NCBI GenBank assembly: GCA_963707955.1
Contig: OY970176.1
Location: forward strand, 2,282,765-2,346,764
Direction: 5' to 3'
Origin: Candidatus Bathyarchaeota archaeon
GTDB taxonomy: Archaea > Thermoproteota > Bathyarchaeia > Bathyarchaeales > Bathycorpusculaceae
DNA: 64,000 nt
Positions 21,220 to 27,862 of this stretch are shown here, piece by piece (the stretch's first letter is position 1; each line of letters starts with the position of its first letter). Under the pieces are notes generated by a model. It worked only from the letters and a program-made list of their open reading frames with translations, did not search any database and had not been told where the DNA came from. Both the position numbers and the translations under genes were made by a program.

Positions 21220-21545
21220 GGTTTTTCCCCAAATTGTATAGAAACACTCCGGCTTTTAAGATTTTGCATACATTTGCTAGTTGTATTGACAAAAATGAAA
21301 AAAGCGTTCTCACCGTGCAATTAGCCCTCTTGTATCATCGAGCCATCACCCCACCGTTAACAGGGAGAAGCATCACCCCGTCAAGTTATCAGAACCAGAT
21401 ATTACTTCCTTCTAAATTTCTTCTCACCATTCCCCGCCTACCGTTAAAATCTGTTTCCCAAGCGTTGAGAACCCAGAGTTCGATAGTGAACCGTGTCTTT
21501 CAGATTTATCATGAAGGTTTCAATGTCAGGCCTTTCCAGAAACTT

Positions 21546-21708
21546 GCAGCTCTGATCAGTTGGCCTAAGACAAAGAGAATGCTGGTTACAGCATATTTGA
21601 AGCAGCGGGCTCGAACCCGTTTAGGTCTAAGTCCGGCTCGGCCCATTTTTAGCAGAGAGAGAAAGTGGACTTGACCCCGTTTGGGTTCTAATCCCAACCG
21701 GTCCACCA
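21546..21708 (+). repeat. Att-like element copy C with two tandem tRNA-3'-end-like tails
   Basis: Core repeat, then AAGTCCGGCTCGGCCCA, then a second right end with AATCCCAACCGGTCCACCA. Confidence 0.9.
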
Positions 21709-21732
21709 CCGTTTTTGCTGCTCGCCTCTGGT

Positions 21733-22886: not shown

Positions 22887-22997
22887 TAGAGACCAATTCC
22901 GGAAACGGTACGAATCCTTATAGTTCTGCCTTTCTTGCACAAGCGCGCGCTAAGTGGCTTTTCACGGCCGTCTTGAGGCGTGCGAGTTCTCTTTTAC

Positions 22998-23369
22998 TTA
23001 CGCTTGAATGTGTTGATGTTGTTTTTCTTTGCTTCTTTCACTGTTGTATCTTTCCCTCAGCCTTCTTATTCTGTCTTGGAGTACTGCTAGTCCCTTTTCA
23101 GGGCTCAACCCTAACTCTTGTGATAGTGCTTCTACGATTGCGTCCTCTAGGATTGTGGGAGCGCCGAGAATCTGTCCTCTGCTTGTCCCGAGTAGGTCTC
23201 TGAGCTTTGCGGAAAACAGGTCTAACTTTGTGGGTATGTCCTGCATGGGACAAGAGCTCTTTTCGAGGTAGTCGTAGATTATGAGTGTGTTTCGGTCGCC
23301 CAGGACGTACCTGAGTGTTTTGTCTAAGGTTTTGAGTAGGATCTCATCGAATTCGTCCATGCTTTGCAA
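22998..23369 (-). CDS. DUF3227/Nitrosopumilus-output-domain-like protein
   Basis: ILLKTLDKTLRYVLG...IIYDYLE...IP.KLD.F...LRDLLG...ILE..IV pattern. Confidence 0.65.
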   Translation of the reverse strand: MQSMDEFDEILLKTLDKTLRYVLGDRNTLIIYDYLEKSSCPMQDIPTKLDLFSAKLRDLLGTSRGQILGAPTILEDAIVEALSQELGLSPEKGLAVLQDRIRRLRERYNSERSKEKQHQHIQA

Positions 23370-23502
23370 CCCGCTTGATTTCTATGCCTTTCACCCTGCA
23401 ACTTATGGCACGACCGCTCTCAGCGTCTTTTCAAGGACGAGTCACCGTTTGGGTTTGCGTTCGGACGGTTTTGAAGAGGCGAACCGTTCGCACCACATCC
23501 CT

Positions 23503-23856
23503 CTACTTTCTCTTCACGTGTCTGCAGTGGTTCTGAAGGGGCTGTGCCCACTCGCGGGAAGAAGTCCTTATCGTCACTTCTGTTGTGTTGAGGCCCAGTG
23601 CGATCTGTCTCTGAGTTCTGATGCTGCCGCACCGTTGCCCTAGAAGGTAGAACAGTCCGCCTACGATTCCCTTTGCGCTCTTGCCGCTGAAAAACGTTGG
23701 GTCTGTCTGGTACTTTTCGCGGATGACGGTCAGGGTCTCTGACGCTATTTCTGTGGCCACTTGGTTTTGACTCTGCCATATTTTCTGCGCGAGTGACAGT
23801 ATCTCTTGTTCTCCTATTCGGTTCAGGATGCGAGTCCTCTCGGCCTTGCTCATCAT
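23503..23856 (-). CDS. Stand-alone TFB/TFIIB C-terminal cyclin-repeat-like protein
   Basis: GKSAKGIVGGLFYLL...RTQRQIA..LNTTEVTIR resembles the TFB second repeat GKxPxGxAAAxLY...TQxEIA..AGVTEVTIRNR. Confidence 0.75.
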   Translation of the reverse strand: MMSKAERTRILNRIGEQEILSLAQKIWQSQNQVATEIASETLTVIREKYQTDPTFFSGKSAKGIVGGLFYLLGQRCGSIRTQRQIALGLNTTEVTIRTSSREWAQPLQNHCRHVKRK

Positions 23857-24101
23857 TGTTCTACTCGATTTTTCATGCTCGTTCGTTTTGATTCCGCCGT
23901 AGCTGCACTTTTTTCTGTCCTGTCGAAGCATGTTGCACCTGTTAATTCATGTGTGAAGATGTCGGCGATAGAACTCTCGGTTTTCTTTTGGTCTGGAACA
24001 TGCATGAGACTCGGAGCGCGGCTTGTTCTCACTAAGTGCCTTTCCGCGTGTATATTTTACTTTCGGTCTGTTTGGCGAATATTTTGCGTAAAAAGTAAAA
24101 G

Positions 24102-25235
24102 CTAACAGGTTACGGCCGATTCGTTTATCGTGAACTGGAGTCTCTCTAGGTATTTTTCGCTGTCGTATTCCCACTTGTTGTTCTTGAAGTACTCGTATGA
24201 GATGGTTTGTCTTTCTGTTTTGGTCGCGTCTTCGGTCACGTATTCGTAGGTTTCAATAAATCCGTTTCTGACGAGTTTGGAGAGCGTCGTGATAAAGTGC
24301 GTGAGTTCTTGTCTCGGCATGTAGATTCGGACGAACAGATGGTTCTTGTCGTACACTTTTCCCATGGCTCTGACGAAGGGCTTGTCCAACAGTGAACAGG
24401 CGAACTTCTTGAATGTCTCGTGGTCCTTGAACGAAAATATGAAGAAGTGAAGGTCAGGGGACAATTCCTTATAGTGGTCTGCGAGTATCTGGGGCCCTTC
24501 AAACATCTGTTTTTTTACTACGTGATTGTCATAGTGGTACTTTATTCTCTGCTCGCTCGTGCCAAGCTTCTCTGCTATTCGCTGGAGTCTGATGGTGCAG
24601 TCTTTTTCAAGCTCTTTCAGTATCATGATGTCCGTCCAGTCTGCTTTCTGGGGGTAGTCGGCGGATTGTCTGAGTGTGAAGGGCAATTCTCCCTGGCAGA
24701 TCTGTGATTCGCGAAGCCACAGGTCCCAGGGAAAGACCCAGTTTTCCGAGGCGCCGTCAAACCATGTGCTGGTGGTGTTCACACTGTGTATGCACGTTGA
24801 CCAAAGGTGTCTGACTTCTGTTATGGTGCTCGTTTCCCTGAGTTGGTTTATGAATTCTTCAAACTTGTTTTCTTTTCCAGCTGGGATGCCGTAGGTTGCT
24901 ACGCATCCGGGCTTCCCAATGCATTGACTGACGTAAAGCCAGTAATCGTTGCACTTTAGGCATTTGTAGAGGAGGTCTTCGTATCCTGGCTTGGATTCGG
25001 CCAGCACCACCACTTTTCTTAGGCCAATGTTGGTGTGGTACAAGTTTCCCTGCAAATACAGAGAAAAATGGGAACGAAGATGGTTGATCCTGTGCAGCAA
25101 TGTTTCTCTGGGCATGTTGAGCTGCGCTGCGAGGTTAGTCATGTTTCTGGCGTGGTACAGCGCTAGTCCTTCCAGTACTTTCACATCAATCCAGCGAAGC
25201 TTTGCCTGCTTAGTCGACTTCGTCAATGTGACCAC
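24102..25235 (-). CDS. Double Lrp/AsnC-type wHTH transcriptional regulator
   Basis: Two HTHs (IDVKVLEGL...LAAQLNMPRETLLHRI; DIMILKELEKD...IAEKLGTSEQRIKYHY), each followed by an alpha/beta sensor-like region. Confidence 0.8.
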   Translation of the reverse strand: MVTLTKSTKQAKLRWIDVKVLEGLALYHARNMTNLAAQLNMPRETLLHRINHLRSHFSLYLQGNLYHTNIGLRKVVVLAESKPGYEDLLYKCLKCNDYWLYVSQCIGKPGCVATYGIPAGKENKFEEFINQLRETSTITEVRHLWSTCIHSVNTTSTWFDGASENWVFPWDLWLRESQICQGELPFTLRQSADYPQKADWTDIMILKELEKDCTIRLQRIAEKLGTSEQRIKYHYDNHVVKKQMFEGPQILADHYKELSPDLHFFIFSFKDHETFKKFACSLLDKPFVRAMGKVYDKNHLFVRIYMPRQELTHFITTLSKLVRNGFIETYEYVTEDATKTERQTISYEYFKNNKWEYDSEKYLERLQFTINESAVTC

Positions 25236-25285
25236 GTCAGCACCGTTAGCGTGTTATAGGCAGTGTGACTTTAGAAACTTTTGGT

Positions 25286-25495
25286 CTAACCAAGTCCGCC
25301 TAACACCATCGGCGTTCCGCCGCCTGGAACAGGATCACCCATCATCGGACTCGCGTAATCGGCTGTTGGCGCGTGCACGTCGAGTACTTTCCATCCGAGG
25401 CTCTTTGCGAAGACTGTGGGGATTATTGCGGCGGCAAGGACTGCTGAGCACAACAGGACAAGCATAGGCAAGAACTTGACGATTTTTGAGGCCAT
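25286..25495 (-). CDS. Secreted 69-aa peptide (putative signalling propeptide)
   Basis: Strong AAAGGAGGTGA Shine-Dalgarno; signal peptide ending ...VFA; C-terminal MGDPVPGGGTP. Confidence 0.75.
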   Translation of the reverse strand: MASKIVKFLPMLVLLCSAVLAAAIIPTVFAKSLGWKVLDVHAPTADYASPMMGDPVPGGGTPMVLGGLG

Positions 25496-25726
25496 GTGTT
25501 CACCTCCTTTTACATTCGGTAATAGAAATCATGCTTATCTAGCATAAATAAAAAACGTCTGTGAGGGTAACGCTCAGCGCGCGTTTGGCAATGGAACCAA
25601 CACGTTCTGCTCTCTAGGGTGCTCTAGAGTTGACAGTGACGCGTCAAAGTAATCGTTAAATGGGCAGAGGACAATTACAACGTGCCTGAGCTGCTTGGCG
25701 CTCGCCGTTTTGGAGATGAATCATGA

Positions 25727-27862
25727 ATGAGCACGGAAATAGGTGAGGATGACTCAGGAAATGCCGCTTCGGGTTTCCTGTTCTTAGGCAAAACCGTGGT
25801 TGATGAGACTGAGGTTCTGTTGCCGATTCAGGCTTTCAAGCGTCATTTCATGGCGCTCGGGGGAAGCGGTTCGGGTAAGACCGTGCTGTGCAAATGTGTC
25901 ATTGAGGAGGCCGTGCGGAACAACGTTCCAGTCCTAATAGTCGATCCGCAGGGGGACATTTCGTCCCTTGCGATAAAGGGTGACGTCGAGGAGTTGATGC
26001 GGCACGGGACAGCGGTTGAAGTGCAGGAGGACTTTTTCAGTAAGGCGCGTGTAGCGATTTTTACTCCTGCGAGCAACAGGGCGATTCCGATATGTGTCAA
26101 CCCTTTCAGGTCTCCTTCACAGGACATTCCGCATGAGGAGGCGGTACAGGCCATCGATCTCACGGCGGATTCTCTAGCGGGCTTCCTAGGTTATGATCTA
26201 AACGGGGACGCTGGAAAAAGTGCGAAGGCTTACATCTTCACGATTCTGGAATACATGTGGCAACAGGGACAGAGAATCGGTGACATGGCTCAACTCGCCG
26301 ACGTCGTATTGAACCCTCCTGAGAAGATTACTGCGACTCTGAACGGTCTTGTGGCGAAGAAAGAACCTGAGGAGATTGCCCGAAAGCTGCGTTTCTTGAC
26401 AGTGGGCACTTCGTCGCTCATGTTTCAGATGGGAGTCCAAATAGACATCAACCTGTTCGTGGACAACAGCGATGGAAAAGTACCGGTGAACATAATCTAT
26501 CTTAACACGTTGACGTCTGAGAACGATAAACAGTTTTTCTTGGCTACGTTGCTTAAGGAGCTTTATTGTTGGATGCTGAAGAACCCCTCCAACGATTTGC
26601 GGATGCTCTTCTACGTTGATGAAATCTCACCTTACATTCCACCCTACCCGAGGAACCCGCCGCCAAAAAACGCTTACACGCTCCTGTTTAAGCAGGCGAG
26701 AAAGTACGGCATAGGACTCGTTGCGGCCACCCAGAACATCACGGACATAGACTACAAAGCATTGGCGCAGGTCAACACGTGGTGTCTAGGCCGCATGATG
26801 ACAACCCAAGACATCGCGAGAGTCCAGAAAATCATTCAGTCCATCGACCCCGTACATGCTGATGCCGTTTTGCAGAAACTGCCCAGCCTGCAGACGGGCG
26901 AGTTTCTTCTCCTGTCTCCAGACCTGTACAGTGACGTAGTCGATTTTGACGTTCGGTGGTTGGTCAGTAAACACTTGACGTTGGACGAGAGGAATCTCGC
27001 CCAGTACGTGCCCGCAGAATCAAGGGCCTTTTTCGAAAAACACGTGCAGGCGGATGTCATGAAGAAATGGACCAATGCTGCCCATTTTGAACCGTCTAAG
27101 ACTCTGGATGAAAAGATTCAACGGTTACTCCGTTCAGAAGGAAGGGCCGTTCCAGCATTGTTCGTAGCAACGGACCTGAAGATAAGTCAGGGGGACTCTG
27201 AGAGGGTCTTGGCTAGTCTTGTAAAAGCTGGAATAGTCAAGAAGGGCCGAAACAAGGCTGATGGTGAAACCTTGTACTGGCTGTCAGAATTCAACTTGGA
27301 CCCGTCTATAGGCATTAGAGGTGAAGTGTTGATGATTTCTCCAGTAATCAGCCAAGCAGAAGCCGTGAAAAAGTCTGCTCCTCTGCTTGAGGGGGGAGTG
27401 TTTCATAAAGACGAGCAAGTCTACGATGCTGAGTTCCGCTATGTGCCCCTCTGGAGAGTGAGGGCAACCAAAGAAACACGATTGCTTCTCGTCAAGAAGA
27501 AAGAGGCACGCACATACTACGTCAGCGGAGAGATGGGTGACCTCGTATCGCTGGAAAAAAGGGAGATAATGTTTCACAAGTTGCTTTCAGGCACGTCTCA
27601 GAAACTCAGAAATCTGGATGAGGACAAACGCTTTACATTCGTCTCAAAAATGCCCGGCGAAATGGACAAGTTACCCCAGATAAGGCTAAGCAAGAATAAA
27701 GCGTGTCAGACGTTGGAATTGAAGATAGGCGTGAAGTCAGAGTCAGCGGAACTGGTTCTGCTGCCCATCTGGAGCCTTAAGGTGCAGCACAAAACGAAGA
27801 AGGCAAGACGCACAATCAACATGGATGCAGCCACGGGACGCCTGCTTGTTGGGAACGTTTAG
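25727..27862 (+). CDS. HerA/FtsK-superfamily (DUF87/DUF853-like) ATPase with C-terminal wHTH-like extension
   Basis: GGSGSGKT Walker A, IVDPQGD, FYVDE Walker B, ARKYGIGLVAATQ. Confidence 0.9.
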   Translation: MSTEIGEDDSGNAASGFLFLGKTVVDETEVLLPIQAFKRHFMALGGSGSGKTVLCKCVIEEAVRNNVPVLIVDPQGDISSLAIKGDVEELMRHGTAVEVQEDFFSKARVAIFTPASNRAIPICVNPFRSPSQDIPHEEAVQAIDLTADSLAGFLGYDLNGDAGKSAKAYIFTILEYMWQQGQRIGDMAQLADVVLNPPEKITATLNGLVAKKEPEEIARKLRFLTVGTSSLMFQMGVQIDINLFVDNSDGKVPVNIIYLNTLTSENDKQFFLATLLKELYCWMLKNPSNDLRMLFYVDEISPYIPPYPRNPPPKNAYTLLFKQARKYGIGLVAATQNITDIDYKALAQVNTWCLGRMMTTQDIARVQKIIQSIDPVHADAVLQKLPSLQTGEFLLLSPDLYSDVVDFDVRWLVSKHLTLDERNLAQYVPAESRAFFEKHVQADVMKKWTNAAHFEPSKTLDEKIQRLLRSEGRAVPALFVATDLKISQGDSERVLASLVKAGIVKKGRNKADGETLYWLSEFNLDPSIGIRGEVLMISPVISQAEAVKKSAPLLEGGVFHKDEQVYDAEFRYVPLWRVRATKETRLLLVKKKEARTYYVSGEMGDLVSLEKREIMFHKLLSGTSQKLRNLDEDKRFTFVSKMPGEMDKLPQIRLSKNKACQTLELKIGVKSESAELVLLPIWSLKVQHKTKKARRTINMDAATGRLLVGNV

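Follow-up and report, generated by a model that had tools for sequence, protein, structure and literature searches.

A 64-kb stretch of the Candidatus Bathyarchaeota archaeon assembly GCA_963707955.1 (contig OY970176.1, positions 2,282,765 to 2,346,764; hereafter the window), part of a 2.35-Mb single-contig genome, carries a gene for a small protein of secreted type directly upstream of a gene for a fused double Lrp/AsnC regulator, and close homologues of the regulator nearly always have such a neighbour. We tentatively read the pair as a plausible signal cassette, in which a secreted peptide is sensed by, or feeds back on, the adjacent regulator. A predicted exported Pro/Gly core of 9-17 residues, its fixed linkage to a cytoplasmic helix-turn-helix (HTH) protein that has two ligand-type domains, several diverged cassettes and occasional tandem cores point in this direction, since together they give the pattern of a propeptide/receptor cassette.

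As proposed here, the two genes would form a signalling cassette conserved in Bathyarchaeia. The small product, of 69 amino acids (aa), would be exported through Sec and cut by signal peptidase, and further processing would probably leave a short peptide, rich in Pro and Gly, around GDPVPGGGTP and the tail that follows it. The single-chain double Lrp/AsnC protein would be the cytoplasmic partner, binding DNA through its two HTH domains, and its activity would change once the peptide or something derived from it is back inside the cell, for instance via an Opp-type transporter. The outcome would be autoinduction or cell-to-cell signalling. We infer export, cleavage, re-import, binding and any density dependence. 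In the clade of the window, a NitrOD5-like protein and a solo TFB repeat could serve as accessory transcription modulators.

The 69-aa pre-peptide

The small open reading frame (ORF) cannot be extended upstream, its ATG being the first start codon after the upstream in-frame stop, and its five closest metagenome relatives, 71-86% identical, are each exactly 69 aa long; it is therefore not a fragment of a longer protein. In these five relatives GDPVPGGG and the tail are invariant and the middle part is variable. Residues G53-G60 and P62 are invariant among six close sequences, and G53, D54, V56, G58, G60 and P62 among six more distant ones. Neither Pfam nor NCBIfam returns a match for the peptide. 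The gene starts behind a strong Shine-Dalgarno sequence, and GGAGGTG followed by a start codon occurs at only 91 sites in the whole genome.

Sec export of the product is predicted from a basic N-terminal end, a hydrophobic core and small residues at -3/-1, the cleavage site being placed by the -3/-1 rule, a heuristic. The hydrophobic stretch spans about 23 residues (hydropathy maximum 2.9) and ends in Pro-Thr-Val-Phe-Ala, after which the variable middle part begins. The anatomy described by an initial sequence-only reading of this DNA, namely a 69-aa ORF with a strong Shine-Dalgarno sequence, a signal peptide and a Gly/Pro motif toward the C-terminus, 50 bp before the regulator, is confirmed; the peptide stop and the regulator start are 50 nucleotides (nt) apart, and the two genes lie in different frames. 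Coordinates are collected in Table 1.

A fused double Lrp/AsnC regulator

The 377-aa regulator matches Pfam HTH_AsnC/HTH_24 (PF13404/PF13412) at residues 200-235 (E 2.6e-7), with a weak second match near residues 28-57. An AlphaFold2 (AF2) model built on 30 homologues (predicted local distance difference test score, pLDDT, 93.2; predicted template-modelling score 0.89) contains two HTH and RAM-like modules and a C-terminal helix after the second RAM-like domain. Its best full-length Foldseek match is NirDL (4ch7; E 1.2e-11, template-modelling (TM) score 0.50/0.59, root-mean-square deviation 12.5, 10% identity), followed by single Lrp/AsnC chains at TM 0.6-0.7. In a profile of the 30 regulators, positions 4-142 match 7fby (E 4e-11) and positions 189-327 match 9w4v (E 7e-11), and the matches of both halves span the HTH and RAM parts of PH0140 and PH0061. 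A BLASTP comparison of one half with the other found no significant repeat (E 0.027 over 23 residues), so that the internal duplication is detectable by profile and fold only. The linker between the modules carries near-invariant or invariant W158, D160, W166, F168, W170 and W173 (alignment A1, 30 regulators). Neither the AF2 fold nor the secondary structure gives any hint of a membrane segment, and Pfam gives no tetratricopeptide repeat (TPR) match at E<=1. Judged by AF2 fold, Foldseek and per-half profile matches at about E 1e-10, the two HTH-plus-sensor repeats seen in the sequence-only reading are borne out and the description "double Lrp regulator" is correct.

Among named sequences, the closest to the regulator come from Candidatus Bathyarchaeia metagenome-assembled genomes (69%, 69% and 60% identity). 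The family is not rare: it has 434 clusters at E<=1e-3 in a set of 5.8 billion proteins, where the names go no further than "Lrp family regulator", "hypothetical" or "winged helix", and 192 matches at E<=1e-30 among 1.84 billion representatives. Co-folding of the regulator (A1) with peptide residues 31-69 (A2) gave a median of 0.63, and one control with an unrelated peptide 0.55, which we count neither for nor against binding.

Table 1. Features of the four-gene block and its flanks, in window positions
Feature	Position	Strand	Basis or remark
Putative TATA box of peptide gene	25542..25555	-	core TTTTATTT at 25546-25553
Shine-Dalgarno GGAGGTGA	25500..25507	-	4 nt before ATG
69-aa pre-peptide gene	25286..25495, stop codon included	-	ORF; 5 relatives of equal length; orthologues L034, L035, L036
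Predicted signal peptide, residues 1-30	25406..25495	-	basic N-end, hydrophobic core, Pro then V-F-A, likely cleavage site
Core GDPVPGGGTP, residues 53-62	25310..25339	-	conservation in close and more distant sequences
C-terminal tail (short, hydrophobic/Gly), residues 63-69	25289..25309	-	L65, G67, L68, G69 invariant in close relatives
377-aa regulator gene, GTG start	24102..25235	-	Pfam, AF2, Foldseek, profile against PDB sequences
First HTH, residues 15-57	25065..25193	-	model helices 15-27, 32-38, 43-57; profile positions 4-142 match 7fby
First RAM-like beta-alpha-beta-beta-alpha-beta domain, residues 58-146	24798..25064	-	AF2, Foldseek, profile
Trp-rich linker, residues 147-199	24639..24797	-	alignment A1 of 30 regulators
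Second HTH, residues 200-240	24516..24638	-	Pfam E 2.6e-7, AF2, profile
Second RAM-like domain, residues 241-342	24210..24515	-	AF2, Foldseek, profile
142-aa TFB-like gene	23503..23931	-	Pfam/NCBIfam, alignment to 1ais_B
123-aa NitrOD5/PH0832-like six-helix gene	22998..23369	-	AF2, Foldseek, PF11537 matches of relatives
Palindrome AGCGCGCGCT	22942-22951	.	downstream of block, not specific to it

Conserved adjacency of peptide and regulator

Homologues of the regulator were drawn from 61 related genomes (G000 included; 30 with a match), from a species-representative collection, and from 401 genomes of the class, 186 of which have a match at E<=1e-10, the weakest being probably ordinary Lrp genes. 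Sixty more regions were taken from the top of the class list, their flanks not being known at the time of choice. After removal of one duplicated contig (L041) and of two regulator fragments that lack the N-terminus (L029, L031), 93 regulators remain, and for 90 of these the available upstream sequence is at least 300 nt long. As a partner we counted any co-oriented ORF of 28-200 aa with an N-terminal hydrophobic stretch, provided that the ORF ended no more than 200 nt before the regulator start and no more than 40 nt beyond it. Because related genomes do not sample independently, the survey figures are counts, not statistics.

The sequence-only reading had proposed, as a check, to see whether a small signal-peptide ORF with a GDP/Pro-Gly core consistently adjoins regulator homologues, and for close homologues it does. 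Regulators scoring at least 400 bits against the family profile have a signal-type ORF in 47 of 51 assessable loci, with the Pro/Gly motif in 44, a Shine-Dalgarno sequence of at least 7 nt in 38, and both in 37. The corresponding figures are 10, 10, 5 and 5 for the 25 assessable regulators at 230-400 bits, and 11, 9, 1 and 1 for the 14 at 100-230 bits. As a control, the same script was applied to all 1115 ORFs of at least 250 aa in the window's own genome. It returned 196 loose matches, five with a strong Shine-Dalgarno sequence and two with the motif, namely the window regulator and the paralogue located at C1:672.5-673.6 kb.

Of the four regulators of at least 400 bits that have no partner, one is L005, where a frameshift in an A8 run (1290-1500) splits an otherwise typical peptide gene, for which an assembly error or phase variation are both possible. 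Nothing comparable is present at L022, L050 and L054. The locus L014 (1290-1500) counts as positive by the loose criterion, yet its Shine-Dalgarno sequence and frame are lost while the regulator is intact, and the peptide gene looks decayed. In L078 the partner is cut by the contig end. Beside a distant regulator (L030, 23% identical), a 66-aa signal-peptide ORF with a Pro/Gly run at its end lies on the opposite strand (1108-1308 in regulator orientation); gene orientation is therefore not fixed across the family.

A scan of the phylum found a regulator match at E<=1e-25 in 83 of 401 genomes, and the named representatives include Culexarchaeum/Verstraetearchaeota proteins annotated as AsnC regulators. 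In Bathyarchaeia, several loci (L071, L075 and others, for example G225:C13:35182-37525) hold convergent, tail-to-tail pairs of double-Lrp paralogues about 180 nt apart, and no adjacent peptide gene was found beside these pairs, which belong to one Bathyarchaeia family. Given such pairs and the distant loci that have no peptide, the regulator family is wider than the peptide association. The adjacency thus holds for close homologues and not for many distant double-Lrp relatives, which have either no peptide or a secreted protein of 103-165 aa.

Peptide classes and co-diversification

Close homologues of the regulator adjoin propeptides of 42-78 aa in which the pro-region is variable and the core invariant. 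In one short clade, to which the paralogue in the window's own genome belongs, products of 42-43 aa consist of a signal peptide with small residues at -3/-1 (an AxA site) and, joined to it without a spacer, a terminal 9-mer of the type [DE]P[IV][DN]xPxGP. An exported product of nine residues can hardly be taken for a structural protein or an enzyme. The basic N-terminal dodecamer of this short class is about as conserved as its C-terminal core. Other clades have products of 60-78 aa with a variable spacer and a C-terminal core, often preceded immediately by xP[NTQ]G, which could be a second processing site in the long forms. The five sequences of the window clade all carry GDPV.GGG.P (support of 100 in a Shimodaira-Hasegawa-like approximate likelihood-ratio test), and one family has products of 42-44 aa with GD.GGG.H and a hydrophobic tail. 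A word-indexed search with the H-type profile returned only Bathyarchaeota names. In three peptides (L076, L028, L036) the core is present two or three times. The most distant regulators adjoin secreted proteins of 103-165 aa with FDPPGG..GP at the C-terminal end (alignment A7), for which an Atlas structure look-up suggests a beta-sandwich, a lead only.

The peptide class follows the regulator phylogeny. A quick maximum-likelihood tree of 90 regulators, from which the duplicate and five fragments were omitted, accounts for the peptide classes with 18 changes; shuffled labels require 55.2, and none of 200 shuffles is as low. This shows that peptide and regulator genes diversify together. Genomes carry several cassettes with different cores, the window's own genome two. 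The second (L002, C1:671034-675119) encodes a 386-aa paralogue, 45% identical to the window regulator, and a 43-aa pre-peptide whose 9-mer, DPINTPVGP, follows directly on the signal peptide; a divergent NitrOD5-like gene is present there as well.

The region from the TATA box to the Shine-Dalgarno sequence of the peptide gene contains class-specific inverted repeats in related loci. Those of the short-peptide clade have 8-15 paired positions, arms built on TTTTTGTCGA and a spacer of 14-20 nt, and at L002 a repeat of 14 matches in 15 positions with a 16-nt spacer occupies this place. At least eight matched positions occur in 24 of 45 loci, against 71 of 450 mononucleotide shuffles. These repeats are candidate operators and would fit autoregulation of the cassette.

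Weighing the alternatives

Several observations weigh against a peptide signal. To our knowledge, Lrp/AsnC sensors are known for amino acids, not peptides. In the window, the upstream inverted repeat does not rise above shuffles, with 6 matches against a shuffle maximum of 7, the hydrophobic segment of the peptide is long enough that it could be a membrane anchor, and the core does not stand at the very C-terminus. The tree result shows co-inheritance and not recognition, because linked genes are inherited together, and the regulator columns that discriminate between peptide classes are spread evenly over HTH, RAM and linker and are not concentrated in the sensor domains. Neighbour clustering found no transporter or protease conserved beside the cassette; the two SBP_bac_5 (Opp/Dpp-type) binding-protein genes of the window's own genome, whose presence speaks for the signalling reading, lie far from the cassette. 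No peptide adjoins 15 of the 25 regulators at 230-400 bits, and 18 of 20 loci from other classes have no partner by the filters used, the remaining two (L112, L113) having the long type. The ancestral partner may not have been a pheromone, since distant relatives have either no peptide or a folded secreted protein of 103-165 aa.

A rival explanation is that the regulator controls the small secreted protein as its output and senses amino acids or another metabolite, while the conserved tail acts outside the cell as a surface ligand, an adhesion tag, a metal binder or an antagonist of other cells. Lrp/AsnC regulators are generally known to control neighbouring genes commonly and to bind amino acids, and the PDB titles of the structural matches name Ile, Leu and Gln complexes. 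The folded, beta-sandwich-like secreted proteins that distant relatives have as partners bear the same tail and resemble extracellular effectors, and no importer is linked to the cassette; both points favour this rival. Against it stand the shortest partners, which are only a signal peptide and nine residues; the apparent loss of the passenger domain while tail and linkage were kept; and the joint diversification of tail class and regulator clade together with the coexistence of paralogous cassettes, which are more typical of recognition pairs than of a generic output. We consider regulation of an output rather unlikely, though it deserves serious attention. Much the same standing, that of an unlikely but real candidate, belongs to a bolder form of the signalling proposal, an archaeal peptide-pheromone system of a new receptor class whose peptides would have arisen from a secreted beta-sandwich protein stripped to its FDPPGG..GP tail and then diverged into clade-specific "pherotypes".

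It is improbable that the small protein stays in the membrane as an N-in single-pass protein, an anti-regulator or secretion-stress sensor whose N-terminus or insertion state tethers or modulates the regulator. The window's hydrophobic segment would suffice to span a membrane, and the conserved basic dodecamer of the short class would suit such a role, but small residues at -3/-1 precede the core in that class, the window peptide has a helix-breaking Pro ahead of V-F-A, and the strongest conservation falls in the part predicted to lie outside the cell. Slightly less probable again is a peptide-handling enzyme or chaperone of Lrp fold with the small ORF as its precursor, as in ribosomally made natural products. 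The precursor does combine an N-terminal leader with a conserved C-terminal core, and the best full-length structural match is an enzyme, the fused Lrp-fold siroheme decarboxylase NirDL. That match is nevertheless distant in fold and sequence, the "leader" looks in every respect like a Sec signal peptide, the two HTH modules show good conservation and sequence matches to DNA-binding Lrp/AsnC proteins, and no maturase, transporter or protease was found linked by neighbour clustering. That the ORF of 69 codons arose by chance or belongs to a longer gene, as its shortness and want of a Pfam or NCBIfam match might suggest, is highly improbable given its strong Shine-Dalgarno sequence and its conserved length, core and position in dozens of genomes. 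The anatomy given by the sequence-only reading and its comparative adjacency test are borne out, and its interpretation, an export-process-reimport peptide quorum system with an Lrp-fold receptor, is partly supported.

Relation to known systems

The closest known cassettes are those of the RRNPP(A) group (Rap-Phr, PlcR-PapR, NprR-NprX, Rgg-SHP, AimR-AimP) of Bacillota and their phages and plasmids. The criteria used for comparison (propeptide size, Sec export, receptor size, TPRs and adjacency) are those given in PMC10075063. The propeptide of 69 aa lies within the 10-100-aa range and the predicted cytoplasmic receptor of 377 aa within the 250-500-aa range, and the two genes are direct neighbours, in the window as in nearly all close homologues. 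Other likenesses are a propeptide led by a Shine-Dalgarno sequence and of Sec type if the prediction holds, with a variable pro-region, a conserved core toward the C-terminal end and some tandem cores, the presence of several diverged cassettes per genome, and an Opp-type importer encoded elsewhere. Tandem cores are also reported for RRNPPA propeptides in the abstract of PMC11343458. Unlike these systems, the cassette has an archaeal host, a Pro/Gly-rich core and, in some relatives, folded secreted partners of 103-165 aa, and its receptor consists of fused double Lrp/AsnC alpha/beta modules. It is not a member of the RRNPP family, because its receptor has no TPRs. By analogy it may nonetheless work like one, sensing of the peptide by the regulator being a reasonable, if far from assured, expectation.

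Each half of the regulator resembles Lrp/AsnC regulators (PH0140, PH1519/FL11, ST1022, LrpA, LrpC) in its HTH and RAM arrangement, its profile matches and its fold. Unlike them, it fuses two modules in one chain where they have a single module of about 150 residues that dimerises or octamerises and takes an amino-acid effector, adds a Trp-rich linker of about 50 residues and a C-terminal helix, and has a secreted-peptide gene as its constant partner. NirDL and AhbA-AhbB (4ch7, 4czd) offer the only solved full-length fused double Lrp-fold chain. NirDL, unlike the regulator, is an enzyme of haem d1/haem synthesis; the Pfam NirdL-like_HTH match is below threshold (E 0.059), and no haem-pathway genes were found among the neighbours of the cassette.

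Cell-to-cell signalling in archaea is barely known. The available part of a 2025 study (PMC12240190) names two signals, a carboxylated acyl-homoserine lactone in Methanosaeta and, in Haloferax, a small molecule of unidentified nature; neither is a peptide, and no peptide is named. Full-text literature searches on archaeal peptide quorum sensing, RRNPP in archaea and Bathyarchaeota Lrp returned no description of such a module. If experiments confirm it, this would be the first system with the layout of bacterial peptide pheromones in archaea. The pair is compact and widely conserved in Bathyarchaeia, widespread uncultured archaea of sediment and soil, and can be tested without cultivating the organism. 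A signalling role would add a new type of ligand for Lrp-fold sensors, extend peptide quorum sensing beyond Bacillota and provide stand-alone NitrOD5 domains and solo TFB repeats with their first function; it would also mean that abundant uncultured sediment archaea communicate by ribosomal peptides. Should signalling prove wrong, there would still be an undescribed, strongly conserved module of secreted tail and regulator that needs explanation.

Accessory genes

The block comprises four co-oriented genes, all on the minus strand, as first described and with their ORF coordinates confirmed in the ORF listing of the window: the peptide ORF, the regulator, a TFB-like gene and a NitrOD5-like gene. 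Taken as a four-gene module, the earlier description stands for the peptide-regulator pair at its core. Of the 93 loci, only 3 (window, L034, L036) have the TFB-like gene and 28 the NitrOD5-like gene (iterated profile), and in L034 and L036 the last two genes of the block are in swapped order; both genes are therefore accessory and not part of the core of the cassette.

Residues 62-132 of the 142-aa TFB-like protein align to the second cyclin repeat of Pyrococcus woesei TFB (1ais_B 125-193, E 1.5e-4), and the NCBIfam TFB model matches at 4.7e-7 over positions 231-307 of 312, which bears out the solo TFB repeat seen in the sequence-only reading. The aligned part includes the DNA-contacting HTH region of TFB. 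Sequence, Pfam and NCBIfam show no zinc ribbon, B-reader/linker or first cyclin repeat, and no paired Cys motifs, and for want of ribbon, reader/linker and first repeat the protein cannot be a general initiation factor.

The 123-aa protein, earlier called DUF3227-like, does not by itself match Pfam PF11537 at E<=0.1. The assignment holds at the level of its family: of 26 aligned relatives, 15 match PF11537 (NitrOD5, formerly DUF3227; best E 6.4e-8) and 7 match NitrOD2. Its AF2 model (pLDDT 89.5) has six helices and superposes on PH0832 (2p9x) with TM 0.82 and Foldseek E 0.03. According to Galperin et al. (2018; PMC5847659), NitrOD5 serves thaumarchaeal response regulators as an output domain, frequently occurs on its own and has no known function. 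A full-text search finds "NitrOD5" as a literature term in one paper only. Unlike the thaumarchaeal domain, the protein described here accompanies a double-Lrp cassette instead of being joined to a REC domain.

Genes that recur beside the cassette in neighbour clustering are NitrOD5-like, PadR-type (10 loci) and MFS (6 loci). The PadR-family gene encodes 109 aa (L007, L011, L016, L017, L025, L026, L028, L037, L039, L040) and may take the place held elsewhere by the NitrOD5-like gene.

Regulatory DNA and genomic setting

The element TTTTATTT lies about 50 nt before the start codon of the peptide gene and is invariant in four orthologous loci (window, L034, L035, L036), which also share the Shine-Dalgarno region; we infer a promoter from it. 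The 50-nt spacer between peptide and regulator genes (25236-25285, minus strand) is partly conserved in the four orthologues, with AAAAG.TCTAAAAA and ATAACA-like stretches, and the regulator may have its own promoter there, with a leaderless or short-leader transcript. Among 12 sequencing runs containing the locus, no RNA run is listed.

Searches for tRNAs and Rfam families found none in or beside the four-gene block. About 500 nt at 21234-21709, between a 340-aa ORF and a 2-hydroxyacid dehydrogenase gene, hold only unconvincing ORFs on both strands, and searches there for tRNA and Rfam matches likewise found none. The surroundings are ordinary chromosomal genes (thermosome, HdrA/MvhD-like, NUDIX, old yellow enzyme, 2-hydroxyacid dehydrogenase), and the idea of a mobile element was dropped for this reason. 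Divergent from the peptide gene stands a gene for a 711-aa HerA/FtsK-type ATPase (25727-27862, plus strand), with N-terminal Walker-type HerA/DUF87 matches, weak CedB/HerA matches and a long C-terminal half without assignment; its adjacency to the cassette is not kept in other genomes.

GC palindromes had been taken to bracket the block. Palindromes do exist on both sides, the one at 25577-25582 being only the 6-nt GCGCGC, but they are not specific to the block and we reject them as its boundaries: the window contains 57 copies of GCGCGC where shuffles predict 13, and most copies fall in its first 35 kb, frequently in the form GCGCGCGC.

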